Assembly: GCA_963826115.1 (NCBI GenBank) | Contig: CAWGVS010000005.1 | Coordinates: forward strand, 2,061,137 to 2,125,136 | Source: an uncultured Candidatus Rokubacteria bacterium | GTDB taxonomy: Bacteria > Methylomirabilota > Methylomirabilia > Rokubacteriales > DASRDR01 | DNA: 64,000 nucleotides | Reading direction: 5' to 3' | In this document: positions 11,332 through 45,836 of the stretch, in pieces | Position numbering within the stretch: the stretch's first letter is position 1 | Layout: each line of letters opens with the position of its first letter | Notes under the pieces: generated by a model | The model's input: only the letters and a program-made list of their open reading frames with translations | Database searches by the model: none | What the model was told of the DNA's origin: nothing | Made by a program: the position numbers and the translations under genes

Positions 11332-12705
11332 CTAGCCGAACGGGAGGAGCAGCTTCGTCAGGGTCGCGCGAACCTCGTCGGGCGTCGTGACCCCGACGGC
11401 CCGCACGATCCCCTTCTTGTCGACCACGACGTTGTGCGGCACGCCGCGGAGGCCGAGCCGGGCGATGTACTCCCCGGTCGCATCGATGAGCACGGTGCCC
11501 TGGATGTTGTGGATCTTGCAAAAATGGAGGGCCTCACGCCGTGGATCAACGTGCTCCCACACGTTGACCATGACGATTTCGAGCCCGAACTTCGCGGCCC
11601 GACGACGCACTTCCTCGAGTAGCGGAGCCTCCGCGTTGCAGGGTCCTCACCAGCTGGCGAAGAAGTTCAGGATGTACTTCTTGCCTCGATACTCCTCCGA
11701 CGTGCGCGGTTTCCCGTCCGCCATGTCCGGCAAGCTGAACGACGGGAGGGGCTTTCCGATCAGAGGATGCTGCCAGTCCTTCGGGAGCTCGGCCGGCTCA
11801 CCGTCCAGCCGATCCTGGAAGATGCTCACCGTGCTGGTGGCCGCGTCCGAGACGTACACGGTTCCCGACTGCTGGTCGACAGCGAGGTCCCCGGGAGCCT
11901 TGCCGACCGGAACCCGCGCCCACTCCCGGCCCGTCTGACGGTCGATCACGCTCACCCGCCCCGTCCCCCGGTTGGCCGCGTAGATGCGATCACCCGCGCG
12001 CCCCAGACCCATGCCTACGGGGGCGCGCTCCACGGTGAGGGTGTCCACGACCTCCTGCTTGTCCAGGTCCACCACCGCCACCGTGCTGACCAGCGAGTTC
12101 GCGACGTAGGCGCGCCCCCGCGGCGCGTCGATGGCGATCTTGCAGGGCGCGTAGTCGAGCTTGATCTCCCCGATGGGCTCGTTCGACTGACCGTCGATGA
12201 CGGTCATCGACGCGTCCCCGAAGTTGACGCAGTAGACGCGGTCCCGCACCGGGTCGGAGCCGAGGCTGCCCGCCGCGGTCTTGGCCGGCACGGTCGCGAT
12301 GACCTCCAGCCGGTCGGCGTCGATGACGCTCACGGTGTTGTCCGCCGTGTTCCCGACATAGACCTTGCGACGCTCCGGATAGAAGCCCGCTCCGGCGGGG
12401 TAGTGCTGGACGGGGATCTGCGTGATGGTCTTGAGGGTCGCCGTGTCGATGACGGACACGACGTCCGAGCGCGCGTCGGTCGTGAACACGTGGCCACCCT
12501 GCTTGTCGTGCACGAGCCCGATCGGCTCGCGGCCCACCGGCACCTGGGCCACGACCTCGCGCGAATCGAGGTCGAACACGGCGACGCTGTCGCTCCGCGC
12601 GCACGCCACGTACCCTCGCCGACCCTCGCCATCGACGGCGATGCCCTCGGGCCCGTAGCCAACTGGAATCGCGCCTGGCGCGGGGAAGCTCTCCGACGTG
12701 CCCAT
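11332..12705 (-). CDS. YVTN/YncE beta-propeller fused to TlpA-like redoxin, predicted selenoprotein (UxxC)
   Basis: ORFs 11647..12705 and 11332..11610 are in the same frame and separated only by TGA at 11649-11647. Readthrough gives LNFFASW-U-GPC-NAEAPLL, matching thioredoxin WCGPC. SECIS-like hairpin follows. Confidence 0.85.
11622..11634 (-). promoter_or_regulatory. Candidate bacterial SECIS hairpin GCGGA-GGC-TCCGC
   Basis: Stem starts 12 nt after the in-frame UGA; G-containing apical loop. Confidence 0.6.
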
Positions 12706-12846
12706 GTGCTCTCCTCGAGACCAAACTCGCTCGTGCTAGGTGAGGGCCGGCGTTCCCGGCTCTGAGCCCGGCACACTATGCCCGATCACCCTTGGCGTCG
12801 CAAGTGATTCATGCCTCGTCGAGGGCTCGGCGCAAGGGGGCCGCCG

Positions 12847-36297: not shown

Positions 36298-37188
36298 CTA
36301 GAGCCGCCGGGCCAGGCGAGGATCCAGCGCCGTCCGGAGGCCGTCTCCCACGAGGTTGACCGACAGTACCGTCGCCGAGAGGGCAAGGCCCGGGAAGAGG
36401 ATCATCCAGAAGGCAACCTGGAAGAACGTCCGTCCCTCCGCGATCACGTTGCCCCACGTGGGCACGTGGGACGGCGTGCCGGCGCCGAGGAACGAGAGCC
36501 CCGCCTCGATGAGTACCGCGGCCGCGAAGACGTAGGTCGCCTGGACGATCAGCGGCGCCACCGTGTTGGGAAGGACGTGGCGCGCCAGGATCCGAGGCAG
36601 CCGCGAGCCGCTGGCGACCGCCGCCTCGACATAGGTTCGCTCCCGGAGGCTCAGCACCAGGCCACGCACCAGCCGGACGACCCGCGGGATCTCGGCGATC
36701 GTGATCGCGAGCACGACGTTCCGGACGCTCGGCCGGCTCAGCGCCATCAACGCGATCGCGACCAGGATCGCGGGGATCGCCATCATCCCGTCCATGACCC
36801 GCATGATGATCGCGTCCGCCGGGCGGCTGTATCCCGACACGAGCCCGAGCAGGAGGCCGATCAGGACGCTCGAGACGGCCACGCTCAGGCCGACGAAGAG
36901 TGAGACACGGCCACCGTAGACGGTGCGGCTGTAGACGTCGCGGCCGTACAGGTCCGTTCCGAACCAGTTCTGGGCCGAGGGCGGGCGCAGGCGCTGGATG
37001 GGGTCGATCTGGACGGGATCGGTCGTGCCGAGCCACGGGGCAAGGATGGCGACCACCGCCGTCGCGAGCAGCAACATCAGGCCGAGCGCCGCCGTCGGAT
37101 GGCGGCGGGCGAGCCGAGCGAGGTGGAGCCACCGGCCGTGAGGGGCCGGAGCCGATCCGGGGGCCGGTTCCGCCTCGGGTGCGCTCAT
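36298..37188 (-). CDS. Peptide ABC permease DppC-like
   Basis: WFGTDLYGRDVYSR, YVEAA, LSFLGAG, GDGLRTALDP. Confidence 0.92.
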   Translation of the reverse strand: MSAPEAEPAPGSAPAPHGRWLHLARLARRHPTAALGLMLLLATAVVAILAPWLGTTDPVQIDPIQRLRPPSAQNWFGTDLYGRDVYSRTVYGGRVSLFVGLSVAVSSVLIGLLLGLVSGYSRPADAIIMRVMDGMMAIPAILVAIALMALSRPSVRNVVLAITIAEIPRVVRLVRGLVLSLRERTYVEAAVASGSRLPRILARHVLPNTVAPLIVQATYVFAAAVLIEAGLSFLGAGTPSHVPTWGNVIAEGRTFFQVAFWMILFPGLALSATVLSVNLVGDGLRTALDPRLARRL

Positions 37189-37192
37189 CGCG

Positions 37193-38134
37193 TCAGTAGC
37201 GGATCCTGGGATCCAGCATCGTGTAGAGAAGGTCGACGGCCAGGTTGATGAGGACGTAGACCGCCGAGAAGACCAGCACGACGCCCTGGATGATCGGATA
37301 GTCACGCCGCAGGATGGCGTCGACCGTGAGCCGGCCGACGCCGGGAATGGCGAACACGCTCTCGGTGATCACCGCCCCGCCGATGAGCAGGGCGACGCCG
37401 ACGCCGATGGTCGTGGCGATCGGCACCGCGGCGTTCTTGAGCGCGTGGCCGACCAGGACCCGGACGGCGGCCAGGCCCTTGGCGTGGGCGGTGCGGACGT
37501 AATCCTCGCTCAGCACCTCCAGCACCGTCGCGCGGGTCATGCGCGCGATGAGGGCGATGTAGACGGTCCCCAGCGCCAGCGTGGGCAGGGTGATGCTCCG
37601 CAGGAATGGACCGAGGCCCTGGGCGATGGGCACGTAGCCCTGGACGGGAAACCACCGAAGCTGGACGGCGCCGCCGTAGATCAGCAGGTAGCCGAGGACG
37701 AACACCGGGCAGGAAAAGCCGAGCACGGCCAGGAGCATGATCGCCTGATCGATCCAGGAGCCTGCCTTCCAGGCCGCGACCACACCCATGGGCACCGCCA
37801 GGGACACGGCCACGACCAGGGTCGCCACGCTGAGCGCCAGCGTCGGCTCCGCGCGCTGCCGGATGAGCCGGCTGACGGGGACGTTCGAGAACACCGAGAC
37901 CCCGAGGTCGCCGCGGAGGAGCTGCCCGACCCAGGTGACGAACTGGACGTGCAACGGAGCGCTGAGCCCGAGTCGCTCGCGGATGCGCTCGACGTCCTGC
38001 GCGGTGGCCAGATCTCCGGCGATCAGCGCGGCCGGGTCGCCCGGCGCCAGGTGGAGGAGCGCGAACACAAAGAGCGCCACCACCCCCATCACCGGCACGG
38101 TGGCAAGGATCCGCCGGAGCAGATAGACGGCCAT
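37193..38134 (-). CDS. Peptide ABC permease DppB-like
   Basis: APGDPA, GDLGVS, EDYVRTAHAKG, DPRIRY. Confidence 0.93.
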   Translation of the reverse strand: MAVYLLRRILATVPVMGVVALFVFALLHLAPGDPAALIAGDLATAQDVERIRERLGLSAPLHVQFVTWVGQLLRGDLGVSVFSNVPVSRLIRQRAEPTLALSVATLVVAVSLAVPMGVVAAWKAGSWIDQAIMLLAVLGFSCPVFVLGYLLIYGGAVQLRWFPVQGYVPIAQGLGPFLRSITLPTLALGTVYIALIARMTRATVLEVLSEDYVRTAHAKGLAAVRVLVGHALKNAAVPIATTIGVGVALLIGGAVITESVFAIPGVGRLTVDAILRRDYPIIQGVVLVFSAVYVLINLAVDLLYTMLDPRIRY

Positions 38135-39946: not shown

Positions 39947-41032
39947 CTACGGGCGGCCCGCGTCCAGCTCCTTCGCGAGCTCCTCTCGTTGAGCGCTGAC
40001 CTCGGCGGGGACGTCGCCGTAGACGTGGTCAAACATGTCGATGAGGCGCGCCGCCCGCATTCTCGCCTCGGCGCGCTCGATGGCGGCTCGCACCTCGGCG
40101 TCCACCTCCGCCTCGAACCGAGCATGCAACGCGTCATCGACGAGACCCTTCGTCTCGAGATAGCGGCGGAGGCGCGGGAGCGGCTCCCGCGCCTCCCACG
40201 CCGCGACCTCGGCATCCTCGCGATACTTCCTCGGATCGTCGGCGGTCGAGTGAGGCGTCAGGCGGTACGTCACGGCCTCGATGAGCGTGGGGCCGCCGCC
40301 CTCGCGGGCCCGCGCGACCGCCTCCCGCGTGACGGTGACCATGGCCAGGAGGTCGTTGCCGTCGACCTGGATCCCCGGAAGGCCGTAGGCCAGGGCCCGG
40401 TGCGCGAGCGTCTTGGCCCGCGTCTGCCTCGACCGGGGGATCGAGATCGCCCACTGGTTGTTGACACACACGAAGACGATGGGCGCCTGGAAGCTGCCCG
40501 CGAAGTTCATCGCCTCCTGGGTGATCCCTTCGGAGCTGGCCCCGTCGCCGAAGTAGCAGAGGACGACGCTGTCCTCCCGCCGGGCGCGGGCGGCGCACGC
40601 CAACCCGACGGCGTGAGGGACGTGAGTACCCATCGGGACGCAGACCGGCAAGTCCCGGATGCCCGCGGGGACGGAGGTGCCTTCCGAGAGGCCCGCGTAG
40701 AGGAGGATGAGGCTCTCGAGCGGCCAGCCCCGCCAGACGTAGGCGGCCCACTCGCGCCAGACGGGAACGAGCCAGTCGGTCGAGCGCAGGGGATACACGC
40801 TGCCGAGAACCGCGGCCTCGTGTCCGCGTGCCGGCAGATAGGTGCCGATCCGGCCCTGACGCTGGAGGAGGAGCATGCGCTCGTCGAACCGGCGTGCGAG
40901 CAGGAAGGTCCGGTAGAGGCGCCGGAGGTCGTCGGGTGGGATCAGCGGCTCGAGGTCACGGTCCAGCTGTCCGTCCTCGTCGAGGATCGAGAGGGCGGCG
41001 ATCGGGTCCAGGTCGATTCGCTGGCGCGGCAT
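39947..41032 (-). CDS. pdhA: 2-oxoacid (pyruvate) dehydrogenase E1 alpha subunit
   Basis: LQRQGRIG, GDGASSEG...NNQWAIS TPP motif, VDGND, TYRLTPHSTADDP. Confidence 0.88.
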   Translation of the reverse strand: MPRQRIDLDPIAALSILDEDGQLDRDLEPLIPPDDLRRLYRTFLLARRFDERMLLLQRQGRIGTYLPARGHEAAVLGSVYPLRSTDWLVPVWREWAAYVWRGWPLESLILLYAGLSEGTSVPAGIRDLPVCVPMGTHVPHAVGLACAARARREDSVVLCYFGDGASSEGITQEAMNFAGSFQAPIVFVCVNNQWAISIPRSRQTRAKTLAHRALAYGLPGIQVDGNDLLAMVTVTREAVARAREGGGPTLIEAVTYRLTPHSTADDPRKYREDAEVAAWEAREPLPRLRRYLETKGLVDDALHARFEAEVDAEVRAAIERAEARMRAARLIDMFDHVYGDVPAEVSAQREELAKELDAGRP

Positions 41033-41035
41033 GCT

Positions 41036-41885
41036 CTAGGGCTCGACGGGTACGTCGTCGCGGCCGCCCCATTCGGTCCAGGACCCGTCGTAGACGGCGA
41101 CGTCCGGGCGCCCGGCGAGATCGAGTCCCAGGGCGAGGACGCAGGCCGTCACTCCCGAGCCGCACGACGTCACGATGGGCCGGTCGAGCTTCACGCGAGC
41201 CGCCTCGAACACCCGTCGGAGGTCCGCCTGCGGGAGCAGCGTCCCGTCCGGTCGGAAGAGCCGATCGTAGGGCAGGCTCAGGCTTCCGGGAATGTGTCCT
41301 CCGCGGAGGCCAGGGCGCGGCTCGGGCTCGGTGCCCGCGAAGCGGCCGGCCGATCGGGCATCCACGACCTGCGCGAGCCCCGTCCCCAGGTTGCGGCGGA
41401 CGCCGTCCAGGTCCGTCACGAGCCCGGGATGGAAGCGCGCGGTGAAGTGGCGGCGCACCGGGGTGGGCTCTCCCGCCTCGACGGGCCGGCCTTCCTCCCG
41501 CCATCGCGGGAAGCCACCGTCGAGGACGGCCACGCGATCATGTCCGAACACGCGCAAGGTCCACCACACGCGGGCCGAGGCGGTCAGGTGCTTCCCGGCA
41601 TACACCACCACCCGGTCGTCGTCGCCGATGCCGAGGGCGCCCGCCGCCTCGGCGAAGGCTGCCGCGTCGGGCAGCATGTGAGGGAGCCCTCGCTCCCGGT
41701 CGGCGATCGCGTCGATGTCGAAGTAGACGGCGCCGGGAATGTGGGCCGGCGACGAACTCCGCCCGCGCGTCGCGCCGGAGCTGTGGCATGTACCACGTCG
41801 CGTCCACGATGCGGAGAGCGGGGGCGCCCAGATGGTCGGCGAGCCAAGCCGTGCTCACCACGGGGCCGAAGCTCGTGTCCGTCAT
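41036..41885 (-). CDS. sseA: 3-mercaptopyruvate sulfurtransferase (frameshift ~41745)
   Basis: VSTAWLA, VDATWY, HMLP, RVWW, LDGG, CGSGVTAC active-site loop, YDGSWTEW. Confidence 0.88.
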
Positions 41886-41980
41886 CGCGCGTTCCCCTCC
41901 GGGTCGAAGCGTCACGCCCGATTATGGCACGGAGGTGGCCGCGGCGCGGGCGGCCGCCAGGGTCGCCCGGCGCGCGATGG

Positions 41981-42655
41981 TTAGCCGGCCGGTGCGGAGG
42001 CGAGCAGGCCTCCGAAGATCCGCCGACCGAGCTCGAATGCCTCGGCGAGGAGCAGCCCCGCCCCGTCGCCGTCCGGCGTCTCGCGGCGCCACTCCGCGAG
42101 CTCCTCTTCCGACCGGAAGAAGTTGAGGCGGGTTCAGAGGAAGCCCGAGAGGCGGTCGCCGCCCCATCGACTCCGCTCGACCCACGCGAGGCTTCCGGGG
42201 GGAGCCTGGCGGGGACCGGCCACCGGATCGACGTCGAAGACCAGCGGGGCGCGGCTCCGGTGACAGCGCGACCTGAGCGTCACCGGACTCCCGGTCATCG
42301 GCGCGACGCCGAGGGCGTCGATCGCGCAGCACGCATAGCGCGTGCGGCCACCGGGAAGCACCACCGCGAAGTCGTTCGGCTCGGCCGTGAACGGGTACGC
42401 GAGCGTGACGCGGTCTCCATCCAGCCCGATCAGGTCCGCGGCGTCGAGCGACGCCGCTCGCGCTCGGAGCGCCTCGGGCCCGAGCCCCGCACCAGCCAAG
42501 CACACGGCTTCGAGGGCAACCGGCCCGCCGGCCTCCACGAACTCTCGCCAGATGGCGCGGAGCAGCGGATCGTCCCGCTGTGCCCGCCGGGCCGCCCATT
42601 CCCCCGCCCGCTCGGGCGTGAGGATCTCGGCGGCGGTCCGGATCTCGACTCTCAC
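41981..42655 (-). CDS. MerB (alkylmercury lyase)-like protein, predicted selenoprotein
   Basis: GTG start overlaps the anti-sigma stop; [18 protein letters not shown]. In-frame TGA at 42136-42134 reads through to [20 protein letters not shown]...[10 protein letters not shown] and TAA at 41983-41981. Confidence 0.85.
42103..42122 (-). promoter_or_regulatory. Candidate bacterial SECIS hairpin CTTCTTCC-GGTC-GGAAGAGG
   Basis: 8-bp stem (one G-U) with GGUC loop, starting 11 nt after the in-frame UGA. Confidence 0.72.
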
Positions 42656-44265
42656 GCCCCCGAGCTTCGCACGACGCCGGCCGCCCGGGCGAGCCGTCCG
42701 GCGAGCGCGCCGGCGCCGAGGCAGACCACGGCGACCCAGATCGCTCCGCCCACCAGGGGCAGCACGGTCGCAAGCGTGACGAGGGCCAGGCCGAGCACCA
42801 GCGCCCGCAGCGCGTCGCGTCTCGGGTCGCCGCGCGGCCGGAGCAGCGCCTTCCCGACGGCGAGACCGACCACGATCTTCGCCGCGTAGAGACCCAGGAG
42901 GTAGAGCCCGAGGAGGACCAGCGCCAGCGGAAGGCCGACGAGGGTCACGGCGAGGAGCAGTATCAGGACGGGGCCCCCGACGAGGGTCGCCACACCCCAC
43001 CCGAGGGATCGCTTCCAGCTCCGCACCCCGTTGGCGCTCTCGACGACCAGGCCAGGCACGAACAGGAGCGCGGCCCAGCCAAGGAGCGCCGCGCCAAAGA
43101 AGCTCGTCGCCGCCCAGAACCACGCGCGCGGCTCTCCATACCACCCGGCGGCGCGCGATGCCACGCGCGTCAACACCGGGCCTGTCACGGTCGCGCCGCC
43201 GTCGACGGTCACGGCCGACGGTCGGACGACGTCGGCCCGGACCGTCCCCTCGAGACGGGCCGGCGCCCTCACCACGAGCCGGTCCCCACGGAAGCGGAGG
43301 TCCCGGCGGACGCGGCCGCTCACCTCCGCGTCGTGAGCCACGATCGTCGCGCCGCGTCCGATCTCGCCGCCGAGCGACAGGCTCCGACCGGCGAGCGTGA
43401 GGTCGCCCCCGACGCTTGCGCCGGGCTCGATCACCGTCACGCGGTCGGCGGCATAGAGCCCCCGGCCGACTCGGCCCCGGACAGTCAAGGAGCCGGCGGC
43501 GGCATAGACACTGCCCTCCACCCTGCCGGTCACCTCCACGGTTCGCGCCACGACCACGAGGTCGCCGCGGACCGTCCCGCGCACGTCGACCTGCGCCGCG
43601 GCGACGATCAGGTCACCATCGATCGTCCCGTCGACCCGAACGCTCTCGGCGGCGGCGACCAGCGTCGCGTCGACCGTTTCCCCTGCCGCGATCGCCACGT
43701 CCCTCCCGCTCCGTGTCTCCAGCGCCTCGGCGGGCGGCGAGGCAACCCCCGCAGCGGCTCCGAGAGCCAGCGCGAACGCCGCGAGCGCGCGCGGGGGAGT
43801 CCGCCCGAGGTAGAGCCCGCCCGCAAGGGCCAGCCCGATCATCATGGTGATCGCTCCTGTCGCGAGCGCGAGCTCCAGCGTGGCGGCGTTCGTCACGACG
43901 AAGAGCACGCCCTCCACGGCGAGGCCGATCCAGTCACCCGGAAGGTCGCCCCACCCGGCGAGGCGCCCGACGCCCGCGGCGCCCAGCAGCGCGGCCAGAG
44001 TGAGCCCCCACGCGCCGGCGCGTCGCCCGTTCGTCGGCGCGCCCAGACGCCCGAACATCGACGCGGGCCGCCCCGCCGGCGCGAGCGCCGTCTGCTCGCC
44101 GAAGGCCGCGCCGAGGATCCGGTTCTCCTCGCGAAGCGCCGCGACCAGCGCCTGGCAACGCGTGCACTCGGCCAGATGACGTTCAGCGGCCCGCGCTTCC
44201 TCCGGGGACAGCTCCCCATCCGCATACACCGCACAGGTGAGCTCGCTCAGGCACGTCATCGTCAA
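42652..44265 (-). CDS. ZAS (zf-HC2) anti-sigma factor fused to bactofilin-like beta-repeat region and multi-TM C-terminal domain
   Basis: YADGEL...HLAECTRC (HxxxCxxC); TM segments; repeats VDGTIDGDL / VRGTVRGDL / VTGRVEGSV; hydrophobic C-terminus. Confidence 0.82.
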   Translation of the reverse strand: MTMTCLSELTCAVYADGELSPEEARAAERHLAECTRCQALVAALREENRILGAAFGEQTALAPAGRPASMFGRLGAPTNGRRAGAWGLTLAALLGAAGVGRLAGWGDLPGDWIGLAVEGVLFVVTNAATLELALATGAITMMIGLALAGGLYLGRTPPRALAAFALALGAAAGVASPPAEALETRSGRDVAIAAGETVDATLVAAAESVRVDGTIDGDLIVAAAQVDVRGTVRGDLVVVARTVEVTGRVEGSVYAAAGSLTVRGRVGRGLYAADRVTVIEPGASVGGDLTLAGRSLSLGGEIGRGATIVAHDAEVSGRVRRDLRFRGDRLVVRAPARLEGTVRADVVRPSAVTVDGGATVTGPVLTRVASRAAGWYGEPRAWFWAATSFFGAALLGWAALLFVPGLVVESANGVRSWKRSLGWGVATLVGGPVLILLLAVTLVGLPLALVLLGLYLLGLYAAKIVVGLAVGKALLRPRGDPRRDALRALVLGLALVTLATVLPLVGGAIWVAVVCLGAGALAGRLARAAGVVRSSGA

Positions 44266-44834
44266 GCCCTCTCATCCAGATCCGCGAGCAGCCGGCGCAG
44301 AGCCTGCTTGCCGCGGAAGATCAGGATTGCCACGTGGTTGCGCGTCACCCCGAGCTGGCTCGCGATCTCCTCGTAGCCCAGCTCGCCGTAGTAGCGGAGG
44401 GCCAGCGACACTCGGTACCGCTCGGGCAGACGCTGAAGGGCCCTACGGACCCGATCCCGCCCCTCGTCGGTCAGCACGGTCGCGAGGGGCGACGGCCCGC
44501 CCTCTCCTTCCGCCGCCCCGCCGTCGGCCTCGTCCCACTCCGCGGCGAACAGCCGGGACTCGAGCCGGCGGCGCCGGAGCACGTCGAGGCAGTGGTGGCT
44601 CGTCACGCTGAGGAGCCAGCGGTCGAAGGGGAGGGCCGGCTCGTACCGGCCGATCGCGTGCGGCAGGCGGAGGAATACGTCGCTCCGGGCATCCTCGGCC
44701 GCATCCGGGGAGCCAAGGATGTGGCGGCAGAGACCCAGCACGCGCCGCCCGAATTCCTGGTAGAGCTCGGCGAAGCCCTCGCGCTCTCCGCGCCGGGCTC
44801 GCTCGACGGCCCCCGCCACCTCGGTCGAGTTCAT
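44262..44834 (-). CDS. ECF RNA polymerase sigma factor
   Basis: AEDARSDVF, FDRWLLSVTSHHCLD, LPERYR, LGYEEIA region 4; ATGA overlap with the anti-sigma. Confidence 0.92.
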   Translation of the reverse strand: MNSTEVAGAVERARRGEREGFAELYQEFGRRVLGLCRHILGSPDAAEDARSDVFLRLPHAIGRYEPALPFDRWLLSVTSHHCLDVLRRRRLESRLFAAEWDEADGGAAEGEGGPSPLATVLTDEGRDRVRRALQRLPERYRVSLALRYYGELGYEEIASQLGVTRNHVAILIFRGKQALRRLLADLDERA

Positions 44835-44850
44835 GGTCCTCCGACGAGTC

Positions 44851-44876
44851 TACGAACCGGCCCCCCCGGGAGTTAC
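44851..44876 (-). promoter_or_regulatory. ECF-type promoter GTAAC-N17-CGTA (autoregulatory, sigma operon)
   Basis: AAC -35 / CGT -10 ECF signature ending 16 nt before the sigma ATG. Confidence 0.65.
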
Positions 44877-44928
44877 ACGGGGACCCGCGCCTACGGTCAC
44901 CCGGGCCTCGTGGCCGGCGGCCCCGGCC

Positions 44929-44954
44929 GTAACGGGGCGGGGCGCCCGTCCGTA
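44929..44954 (+). promoter_or_regulatory. ECF-type promoter GTAAC-N17-CGTA (divergent desaturase operon)
   Basis: Same motif and spacing as the minus-strand copy. Confidence 0.65.
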
Positions 44955-45008
44955 TGACTGTACGAGCGCCCGATCGGGGCCCAGCTAGCCAACCAGGAGG
45001 AAACGCGC

Positions 45009-45836
45009 ATGTCTTTCGAACGCATCCTGACGGACTACGGAGAGCCTCTGCAATACGTGACCTATTTCGGTCTGCTGGCAGGACTCGGCGCGATGGAGGC
45101 CGTGGCCCCTCGATGGAACGGCCCGGCGGAGCGCACGCGTCGGTGGCCGGCGAACTTCGGCCTGACGGCGCTCAACATCGTGGTGCTGGGAGCCCTGCCG
45201 GTCAGCGGTCTGGCGGTGGCCGCCATCGCCCGGCAGCAGGGCTGGGGGATCCTCCAGCGCTACCCCTTGCCCCCCGCCGCCACGCTCGGGGTGGCGCTCC
45301 TCGCGCGAAGCCTCGTCTCGTACGCGGTCCACGTGGCGATGCACAAGGTGCCCGCGCTGTGGCGCGTGCATCGTGTCCATCACACCGACGTGTTCCTGGA
45401 CATCTCGACGACCGTCCGGTTCCATCCGCTCGAGTTCCTGATCCAGCTCGGGCCGACGGCCCTCGTCATCCTGGGCCTCGGCCTGCCGCCGTGGACGATC
45501 ATGCTCTACGAGCTGGTCGATACGGCGACGAACCTCTTTATCCACGCGAACGCCCGGGTGCCGGCCCGCCTCGACGCCGGGCTCCGCCTCCTCCTCGTCA
45601 CCCCGGACATGCACCGGGTCCATCACTCGGCCCTCGGGCCCGAGACGGACTCGAACTACGGGGTGGTCCTGCCGTGGTGGGATCGGCTCTTCGGCACCTA
45701 CCGCGCCGCCATCGGCGCCCCCCGGGACACGCGGCTCGGCCTCGAGGAGTGCCAGGATCGGCGGGCATCGTCACTCGGCTGGCTCCTTGCGCTCCCGTTC
45801 CGGGGGCGTCTCGAGCGCGTGGCGGAGCGCACCTGA
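45009..45836 (+). CDS. Sterol desaturase / fatty acid hydroxylase family protein
   Basis: His boxes HVAMH, HRVHH, FIHAN, HRVHHS; RFHP; NYG...WDRLFGT. Confidence 0.9.
   Translation: MSFERILTDYGEPLQYVTYFGLLAGLGAMEAVAPRWNGPAERTRRWPANFGLTALNIVVLGALPVSGLAVAAIARQQGWGILQRYPLPPAATLGVALLARSLVSYAVHVAMHKVPALWRVHRVHHTDVFLDISTTVRFHPLEFLIQLGPTALVILGLGLPPWTIMLYELVDTATNLFIHANARVPARLDAGLRLLLVTPDMHRVHHSALGPETDSNYGVVLPWWDRLFGTYRAAIGAPRDTRLGLEECQDRRASSLGWLLALPFRGRLERVAERT

Follow-up and report, generated by a model that had tools for sequence, protein, structure and literature searches.

The DNA examined here, referred to as the window, is a stretch of 64,000 nucleotides (nt) from an uncultured Candidatus Rokubacteria bacterium (GenBank assembly GCA_963826115.1, contig CAWGVS010000005.1, positions 2,061,137 to 2,125,136 of the forward strand). 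It carries a real MerB-like gene that is mis-truncated by gene callers at an in-frame TGA, and this gene very probably encodes a genuine selenoprotein, with selenocysteine (Sec, U) predicted at the position of a catalytic cysteine. The best explanation overall, which we consider likely, is a full-length Sec-containing lyase of the MerB fold, probably of the organomercurial type, with a Cys/Sec/Asp active site.

The TGA codon is preceded by 173 codons ending in DRLSGFL, and the open frame resumes behind it for 50 codons. Residues 107-113 read YACCAID, and GFL-U-TRLNFF surrounds codon 174. The alignment with homologs begins at residue 1 of the window protein. The first-pass annotation, made from the letters of the window, had described a frame of 224 codons in total that continues 50 codons past the TGA, both motifs, and an 8-bp hairpin with a GGUC loop 11 nt after the UGA; translation of the minus strand and inspection of the hairpin gave each of them as quoted.

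The TGA codon falls at a catalytic position of the MerB fold

The read-through product was matched by the Pfam family MerB (PF03243) with 82.6 bits (cut-off 27; E 2.9e-23) over residues 89-215. The match covers model positions 1-126 of 126 and spans the TGA. A sequence search of the PDB returned MerB2 (5c17, 1.8e-8) and Escherichia coli MerB (1s6l, 2.6e-7) as the best matches. Residue 174 aligned with the single catalytic Cys of MerB2 (GGTCKQIHYF) and fell at the C159/C160 pair of E. coli MerB. An AlphaFold model, for which a 48-sequence alignment of relatives was the input, reached a predicted local distance difference test score (pLDDT) of 89.1 and a predicted template modeling score (pTM) of 0.88. 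When this model was compared with the PDB by Foldseek, all 11 matches at E <= 1e-3 were MerB or MerB2 (E 5.5e-12 to 9.1e-8), with target-normalized template modeling (TM) scores of 0.71-0.75 and root-mean-square deviations of 2.5-3.0 A, leaving aside the nuclear magnetic resonance model. The identity in the structural alignment to MerB was only about 22%. The Pfam alignment, the PDB sequence matches and the Foldseek result all agree with the family assignment proposed in the first-pass annotation.

The columns invariant among the 48 sequences were C110, A111, D113, A114, G116, C131, W158, 174, F180, W189, and G198. By the alignments, the E. coli MerB equivalents of C110, D113, and U174 are Cys96, Asp99, and Cys159. 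Of the MerB catalytic set, C110 and D113 are thus present and invariant, and position 159 is a UGA codon, predicted to be read as Sec, which is chemically analogous to Cys without being the residue that defines the family. C131 lies at the position of what we take to be Cys117 of MerB. According to the available part of PMC8261052, Cys96, Asp99, and Cys159 are essential in E. coli MerB, where the Cys pair binds Hg and Asp99 protonates the leaving carbon. A vicinal C109-C110 pair was present in 38 of 40 forms with the TGA (Sec forms), the window protein included, whereas the first motif of the 10 Cys forms examined was VC or LC, with a single Cys. Outside the genus of the window, most Sec forms also carry a CHHC motif; E. 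coli MerB has neither CHHC nor the vicinal pair.

TGA and Cys alternate in one column, and the segment behind the TGA is conserved

When 201 genomes sampled from the phylum were searched in six frames, 110 were found to contain relatives. Among the genome matches with E <= 3.6e-25, 67 of 71 carried the in-frame TGA, as counted from the result table; the remaining four were three full-length sequences without TGA (genomes G038, G071, and G010) and one fragment. These phylum-wide counts, like those of selA below, include four unpublished genomes (G101, G151, G058, and G029), which are excluded from the alignments, the tree, and the extracted loci (L numbers). Fifty-one loci were extracted, namely the 30 best genome matches, the paralog of this genome twice, and 19 hand-chosen loci, and 50 rows were left after one duplicate had been dropped. 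In this alignment the residue-174 column held TGA in 40 rows and Cys in 10, a ratio that is no frequency, 10 of the 50 rows having been selected for having no stop. The Cys rows read, for example, SSI-C-LTLNFF or SR-C-PDINFF. The alternation of TGA and Cys that was looked for in the homologs is therefore found in one column. Together with the catalytic Cys of 5c17 and the C159/C160 pair of E. coli MerB, the Cys of the 10 homologs bears out the earlier placement of Sec at the second catalytic cysteine.

Database entries showed the same position from the other side. The 120 best protein-database matches comprised 117 that end at residue 170-173, which corresponds to the TGA, and 3 fragments. The 150 best representatives at 50% identity, classed by pairwise BLASTP, comprised 88 with Cys at position 174, 28 ending at the TGA, 27 fragments, and 7 others.

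The segment behind the TGA has the consensus tail ...P...GAG....EAF.LG..IFGGLL, in which the codons of the invariant G198 vary (GGG/GGC/GGA/GGT, 8/12/13/3); the likewise invariant W189 lies in the same segment. A199, R187, and P194 are encoded by 4-5 codons each, with five for R187, the commonest of which accounts for 30%. This conservation with synonymous variation points to protein-level selection on the 50 residues behind the TGA, and the conserved segment on which the first-pass reading depended was thus found. As in bacterial selenoproteins recognized by an in-frame UGA, Cys occurs in homologs and both sides of the codon are conserved. Moreover, the contigs of four metagenome runs had their depth maximum exactly over 42089-42142, and none of the 40 listed differences fell at 42134-42136 (106 further differences lie beyond those listed).

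A GGUC-loop hairpin follows the UGA codon

The UGA is followed by 11 nt, ACCCGCCUCAA, and then by a hairpin made of CUUCUUCC (42122-42115), the loop GGUC (42114-42111), and GGAAGAGG (42110-42103), with 8 pairs, one of them G-U. The selenocysteine insertion sequence (SECIS) of bacteria is a stem-loop shortly after the UGA with a G in the apical loop. The hairpin of the window, 11 nt after the UGA and with its GGUC loop, has both properties. An Rfam scan of 41900-42300 at E <= 10 returned chance-level matches only and no SECIS family.

Codon usage was compared among 36 Sec forms, whose proteins are no more than about 40-50% identical. The codons under the hairpin were nearly frozen: N178 was AAC in 35/36, F179 and F180 were TTC in 36/36 each, R181 was CGG in 36/36, S182 was TCG in 34/34, and E183 was GAA in 31/36. 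The mean fraction of the top codon was 0.897 for 8 codons of the hairpin region, as against 0.651 for 50 conserved codons elsewhere. The GGUC hairpin was absent from 10 of 10 Cys forms. Two distant Sec forms (L074 and L075) have another stem (UGCUC/GAGCA) with the same GGUC loop.

The genome encodes the selenocysteine machinery and a paralog of the gene

The Sec machinery, whose presence the first-pass annotation had left to be confirmed, was found in this genome with selA, selB, selC, and selD all above cut-offs. selA (576.5 bits) and selB (347.8 bits) lie side by side on contig 8, next to tRNA-Sec (76.9 bits; ARAGORN: tRNA-SeC, anticodon tca). selD (393.2 bits; contig 5, 561687-562604, plus strand; L011) has an in-frame TGA of its own and is thus a Sec-type selenophosphate synthetase.

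A paralog of the window gene was found on contig 11 at 36890-37555 on the plus strand (L027/L076). It is 74% identical and has the same TGA. Its locus is a segmental duplicate with an anti-sigma factor, the Sec-type MerB-like gene (Sec-MerB), an intact rhodanese, and the E1 alpha subunit of pyruvate dehydrogenase (PDH). The window gene and this paralog are the only PF03243 genes of the genome.

The clade is separate from SaoL and from canonical MerB

In a FastTree tree of 138 rows, the window protein fell into a clade of 61 rows (local support 97), made up of 56 Sec forms and 5 Cys forms. A separate Sec lineage, L074 and L075, lay inside a Cys clade of the same tree. At least 5 changes between Sec and Cys are needed, or 2 when only well-supported branches are counted. 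The tree left out fragments, representatives starting at or after query residue 45, and L027, L030, and L034, as well as SaoL and canonical MerB; the origin of Sec in this clade is probably independent of SaoL, judged by scores of hidden Markov models (HMMs) only. The clade comprises at least 28 clusters at 50% identity and is found in most sampled genera of the order of the window. A few homologs are publicly named as Candidatus Rokuibacteriota/Methylomirabilota, their products being given as organomercurial lyase or hypothetical protein, and all of them have 170-173 residues. These results place the window protein in a separate clade, neither canonical MerB nor SaoL, whose hosts are apparently Methylomirabilota/Rokubacteria.

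Three Cys-form carriers of the main clade were compared for selA. No selA was found in G010 (L059/L086), a genome of 98% completeness, which is the only such case; the others, G038 and G071, have selA. G010 would fit a reversion from Sec to Cys after loss of the Sec trait.

SaoL is described in the accessible part of its preprint (bioRxiv 10.1101/2022.07.06.499078, Haft & Gwadz) as a MerB-like selenoprotein with a CU dipeptide, whose Sec aligns with C159, encoded in a nine-gene SAO locus of anaerobes only; the genes of the locus include an ABC transporter (SaoB/P/X), SaoC, SaoE, and SaoT. The statement of the first-pass annotation that Sec-containing MerB-like proteins are known from sao clusters is therefore published, with the refinement that the window protein is not SaoL. 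As far as that text goes, both have the MerB fold of PF03243, Sec at MerB Cys159 about 50 residues from the C-terminus, and database entries truncated at the UGA. However, the window protein scored only 35.2 bits with the SaoL model NF040728 (cut-off 140), over residues 67-139 only. Instead of C-U it has L173-U174-T175, with L173 in 32/36 Sec forms, and it carries a vicinal CC-A-I-D. Its neighbors are an extracytoplasmic function (ECF) sigma factor, an anti-sigma factor, a rhodanese, and PDH E1 alpha, not the SAO set (individual Sao HMMs were not searched by name), and the partners among its relatives are MerR, MerF, MerE, and a glutaredoxin. The hosts of SaoL are exclusively anaerobes in the same part of the preprint, whereas the window clade carries the names of Rokubacteria/Methylomirabilota.

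Canonical MerB (E. coli R831b, 1s6l/3f0o; Bacillus MerB2, 5c17) shares the fold and the catalytic positions with the window protein, which differs by Sec in place of Cys159 and by the low identity given above (about 22%). There is also no mer operon around the window gene, as judged from the scanned open reading frames (ORFs) and tblastn of the genome. The Cys-type relatives from this clade and its sister clades (for example L057-L059, L060-L066, and 88 of the 150 representatives) are 30-45% identical over the full length and have in common with the window protein the motifs A-x-C-A-[IV]-D-A-L-G and [CU]-x-x-[LI]-N-F-F. They differ by Cys for Sec, by lacking the GGUC hairpin, and by a single Cys in the first motif (10 forms examined).

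A MerB-like protein with Sec at the C159 site is thus already known in SaoL, which is the only MerB-like selenoprotein listed in the available portions of the 2022 and 2026 reviews (PMC9312934 and PMC13188914). The apparent novelty is a second large Sec clade, with a different motif, other partners and regulators, soil/groundwater-type hosts, and uniform truncation in public gene calls. A description of this clade was not found in the literature searched; the selenoprotein tables of Deng et al. on groundwater metagenome-assembled genomes (MAGs) may already list the family. As cited in the accessible part of PMC13188914, that study includes one Methylomirabilota MAG with 63 predicted selenoproteins.

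Members of the clade occur in mer-like loci in other genera

A MerR-type regulator lies beside the Sec gene in nine loci (L037, L043=L079, L045, L050=L080, L054, L055, L081, L068=L082, and L070=L083), a number that is no frequency. Such a regulator was present in 6 of 21 short loci and in 5 of 5 extended loci from other genera of the order, the extended loci being hand-chosen. Seven regulators were scanned with NCBIfam models. Six had the Hg(II)-responsive MerR model TIGR02051 as the best match (118-134 bits, cut-off 150.85), with CueR close behind; the seventh, which is the second regulator of L037, matched CueR best. The six carry three cysteines each, which by eye lie at what we presume to be the metal-ligand positions of Hg-MerR.

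Mercury transporters and a second type of MerB were also found in these loci. MerF was detected in L080 and L081 (39.3 and 47.9 bits, cut-off 24.3), MerE in L078 (40.7 bits, cut-off 22.8), and MerC in L077 (28.1 bits, cut-off 27.6). A canonical-like Cys MerB lies 2.5 kb from the Sec form in L078 (189.9 bits) and directly downstream of it in L044 (176.6 bits), the cut-off being 193. Among the genome matches, weak ones with one TGA (E 1e-4 to 1e-7) were considered as a second Sec family. This was rejected for L078 and L044, the only two of these matches that were read, which are the canonical-like Cys MerBs with the TGA as an ordinary stop.

Two further TGA-containing genes come after the Sec-MerB gene in L077 and L078, which belong to two related genera. 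The first (L077:6365-6598 and L078:6856-7092, both minus strand) encodes a 78-residue glutaredoxin/NrdH-like protein with P-G-U-x-x-C. A UxxC glutaredoxin stands directly downstream of Sec-MerB in three genera, with PGUAGC, PGUGAC, and T-U-Q-S-C (L082:5089-5370, minus strand), and scores near, and below, the YruB and Uxx-star cut-offs. The second gene (L077:4917-6254 and L078:5174-6514, both minus strand) encodes a 446-residue class-I flavoprotein disulfide reductase with C-L-G-T-G-U as its redox motif. This Sec-reductase scored equally, at 346 bits, with the models for lipoamide dehydrogenase and for MerA, in neither case reaching the cut-off, and it is without the C-terminal Cys pair that is a hallmark of MerA. 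The Sec-reductase family was not found in the available part of the 2026 selenoproteome review (PMC13188914).

Upstream of MerE and Sec-MerB, L078 likewise carries a gene for an ECF sigma factor together with a zf-HC2-type ORF. Orthology of this pair with the sigma/anti-sigma pair of the window was considered and rejected, the sigma factors being 28% identical and the anti-sigma factors sharing only H-x3-C-x2-C; the sequences indicate an analogous arrangement, not an orthologous one. Within 2-3 kb of MerR/Sec-MerB there are also a gene with a Mu-transposase C-terminal domain (L079:9201-9605, minus strand) and a phage-integrase-family gene (L081:7575-8414, plus strand), which hints that the small mer-like unit is mobile.

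The placement of the gene outside any mer operon, as the first-pass annotation had it, consequently holds for this genome, but not for the clade, which sits in compact mer-like loci in other genera. Likewise, its caution that the substrate is not necessarily mercury has to be modified. Because of the MerR, MerF/MerE/MerC, and canonical-like MerB contexts of the clade elsewhere, mercury becomes more likely, not less.

Genomic neighborhood of the window gene

The features of the gene and its neighbors are collected in Table 1. The TGA stop of the anti-sigma gene overlaps the start of the MerB gene (GTGA), and a gap of about 95 nt separates the Sec-MerB gene from the rhodanese gene. Sec-MerB is thus the third gene of an apparent sigma/anti-sigma/MerB(Sec) unit. 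The order sigma/anti-sigma/Sec-MerB/rhodanese/PDH is kept in loci of the same genus and around the contig 11 paralog. Scanning of 41000-45200 for sigma-70 promoters and terminators gave 0 of each.

Table 1. Position and basis of the features in and around the Sec-type MerB-family gene (coordinates of the window)
Feature	Coordinates	Strand	Basis
Sec-type MerB-family gene (predicted)	42655..41981	minus	GTG 42655-42653 to TAA 41983-41981, 224 codons (translation)
In-frame UGA, codon 174, predicted to be read as Sec; MerB Cys159 equivalent	42136-42134	minus	column conservation and 5c17 alignment
First active-site motif C109-C110-A-I-D113	42317..42331	minus	alignment to 1s6l and 5c17
Invariant C131 codon	42263..42265	minus	invariant alignment column
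SECIS-type hairpin (candidate), within codons N178-E184	42103..42122	minus	fold and synonymous freeze
ECF-type sigma-70 factor	44834-44262	minus	Pfam Sigma70_r2, r4_2; TIGR02937 93.7 bits, cut-off 42.9
Putative anti-sigma factor, N-terminal zf-HC2 and bactofilin	44265-42652	minus	Pfam zf-HC2 33.4 bits, Bactofilin 40 bits
3-Mercaptopyruvate-sulfurtransferase-like tandem rhodanese	41885-41036	minus	Pfam Rhodanese; NF008557 208 bits, cut-off 250
PDH E1 alpha	41032-39947	minus	profile scan of window ORFs

The rhodanese gene is split into two frames by one extra base near 41750, compared with L028 of the same genus and L027, the paralogous locus; the cause is a genuine frameshift or an indel of the assembly. 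We treat the rhodanese as gene context only. No merA, merR, merT, or merP family was detected among the 36 ORFs of 34-50 kb scanned by family model. The earlier statement that merA, merR, and merT are missing from the window therefore stands for these ORFs, and for MerA also in that the window has no MerA-like match, the rest of the window not having been scanned by model for merR and merT.

Alternative explanations

A number of results speak against a Sec-dependent organomercurial lyase, first with regard to its substrate. With the MerA profile, nothing in the whole genome was above the cut-off, and the best match (388.6 bits, cut-off 454) was without the C-terminal Cys pair. No counterpart of the relatives' MerR, MerF, MerC, or MerE was found in the whole genome by tblastn at E <= 1e-3, nor was one found for their canonical-like MerB and Sec-reductase; the only exceptions in these searches were disulfide reductases of the ordinary Cys type (35-38% identity), a single Cys glutaredoxin, and a distant glutaredoxin of the Sec type elsewhere on contig 5. 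The scores with the canonical MerB models of NCBIfam were far below the cut-offs (NF009710, 52 bits against 193; NF033555, 40.6 against 200). Moreover, turnover of the enzyme without a partner could be poor, because a selenolate should hold Hg(II) very tightly.

The missing MerA, MerR, and mer transporters and the low scores with the canonical models are what would be expected if the protein, while a genuine selenoprotein, had a non-mercury target in this genus, either another organometal(loid) or soft electrophile as the substrate or a role as a metal-binding or scavenging protein. Regulation by an ECF sigma/anti-sigma pair and not by MerR points in the same direction, as do the additional C109-C110 pair of most Sec forms and the CHHC motif outside the genus, both without a counterpart in E. 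coli MerB. The same caveat is made for SaoL in the accessible text of Haft & Gwadz (10.1101/2022.07.06.499078). On the other hand, neither the Cys/Asp/Sec triad nor the MerB fold is disrupted, the clade is found elsewhere in MerR/MerF/MerE/MerC contexts beside canonical-like MerB, and no neighbor points to an alternative substrate. We regard another soft-metal, organometal, or electrophile role as possible, though rather unlikely, and would choose organomercurials, with some reserve, as the physiological substrate here, on the strength of sequence and gene context.

The second group of adverse results concerns the reading of the UGA. The folding energy of the hairpin was unremarkable (z = -1.34), 21 of 200 shuffled sequences folding equally well, and RNAalifold found covariation in 0 of 6 consensus pairs, with no compensatory changes. 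The hairpin also overlaps the conserved peptide motif NFFRSEE, and part of its conservation is therefore at the protein level. The signal above chance is in the conservation, namely the TGA column, the synonymous freeze, and the Pfam match across the TGA, and not in the folding energy. TGA forms occurred in six MAGs in which no selA was found (G033, G042, G097, G092, G144, and G186). Since selA is present in 173 of the 201 genomes of the phylum, the co-occurrence of TGA forms with selA is not discriminating. A word search of sequencing runs found no RNA run; the best run shared 0.23 of the words, and none shared half. Insertion of Sec at codon 174 is thus what we infer from the sequence comparisons.

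If the TGA were an ordinary stop, the product would have 173 residues and the 50 codons downstream would be untranslated remains; 117 of the top 120 database entries have been called in this way. Such a truncated protein, however, would have neither the second ligand for the metal nor the C-terminal helix and strand of the MerB fold. The frame downstream stays open and, in homologs down to about 40% identity, keeps its protein sequence while synonymous sites vary, the Cys-type homologs are continuous through position 174, and both a recoding hairpin and the Sec machinery are present, all of which makes an ordinary stop very improbable. An assembly or sequencing error, or a recent pseudogenizing mutation of a Cys codon (TGC/TGT), might be thought of in view of the one-base indel in the adjacent rhodanese, seen in this assembly only, which makes local errors or decay conceivable, but can practically be dismissed, as the same TGA occurs in the paralog and in dozens of independent genomes and metagenome contigs and none of the listed metagenome differences touches it.

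Proposed mechanism

For the Sec-dependent lyase preferred here, SelB and Sec-tRNA(Sec) would decode the UGA of codon 174, guided by the GGUC-loop hairpin 11 nt downstream. The chemistry would most likely be that of MerB: the Cys110 thiolate and the Sec174 selenolate would bind the metal of R-Hg+, Asp113 would protonate the carbon, and RH would leave. Hg(II) would stay on S/Se until it is taken by a thiol or selenol partner. Cys109, vicinal to Cys110, could be an internal exchange ligand, and the Sec-glutaredoxin, as well as the Sec-reductase in two loci, would be plausible partners for release or re-reduction. Compared with a thiolate, a selenolate is more nucleophilic and binds Hg much more tightly. 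Because of these two properties, Sec should speed the capture of substrate at low concentrations and slow the release of the product.

Zinc-finger anti-sigma factors are classically sensors of thiol or redox state. The window gene comes third in its unit, after the genes for an ECF sigma factor and an anti-sigma factor of the zinc-finger kind, and induction by envelope or thiol stress, not by MerR, is therefore probable. Induction by thiol-reactive stress, organomercurials included, would be a reasonable guess from this arrangement. In the genus of the window, the gene lacks the MerA, MerR, and transporter partners that the clade has elsewhere, and it would also have lost the Sec-glutaredoxin and the Sec-reductase.

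A wider scheme, which we find doubtful, would be a selenium-based mercury relay without classical MerA. Sec-MerB would cleave the substrate and hold Hg(II), the Sec-glutaredoxin would strip off the metal or re-reduce the enzyme, and the CxxxxU reductase would help in some genera. The genus of the window would keep the lyase only, rewired from MerR to a thiol-sensing ECF sigma/anti-sigma pair, and the change from Cys to Sec at the C159 site would have occurred independently at least three times (SaoL, this clade, and L074/L075). The three relay genes are consecutive in L077 and L078, and L082 has the first two, Sec-MerB and Sec-glutaredoxin, next to each other.

Significance of the clade

Substitution of Sec for Cys in this family was known before only from gut and sediment anaerobes; the window clade would be a soil-bacterial branch, so far unlisted, and a second, probably independent acquisition of Sec at the catalytic site of SaoL in bacteria of quite different lifestyle. 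With its natural Sec/Cys pairs of one lyase, it could be used for probing what selenium does in the protonolysis of the C-Hg bond and in the release of Hg(II). Surveys of MerB that require Cys96/Asp99/Cys159 (such as PMC8261052, as far as its accessible part shows), together with gene callers that stop at UGA, would miss the clade, and the demethylation potential of soil and groundwater bacteria of the Rokubacteria/Methylomirabilota type is thereby probably under-counted.

A probable second selenoprotein of the window

Apart from the gene described above, the window contains a probable second selenoprotein gene at 11335-12735 on the minus strand, with its TGA at 11647-11649. The predicted protein is a beta-propeller (YNCE/NHL-like) fused to a Redoxin/TlpA-like domain with the active site FFASW-U-GPC; the in-frame TGA lies within the stretch matched by Pfam Redoxin (71.1 bits, residues 327-453).

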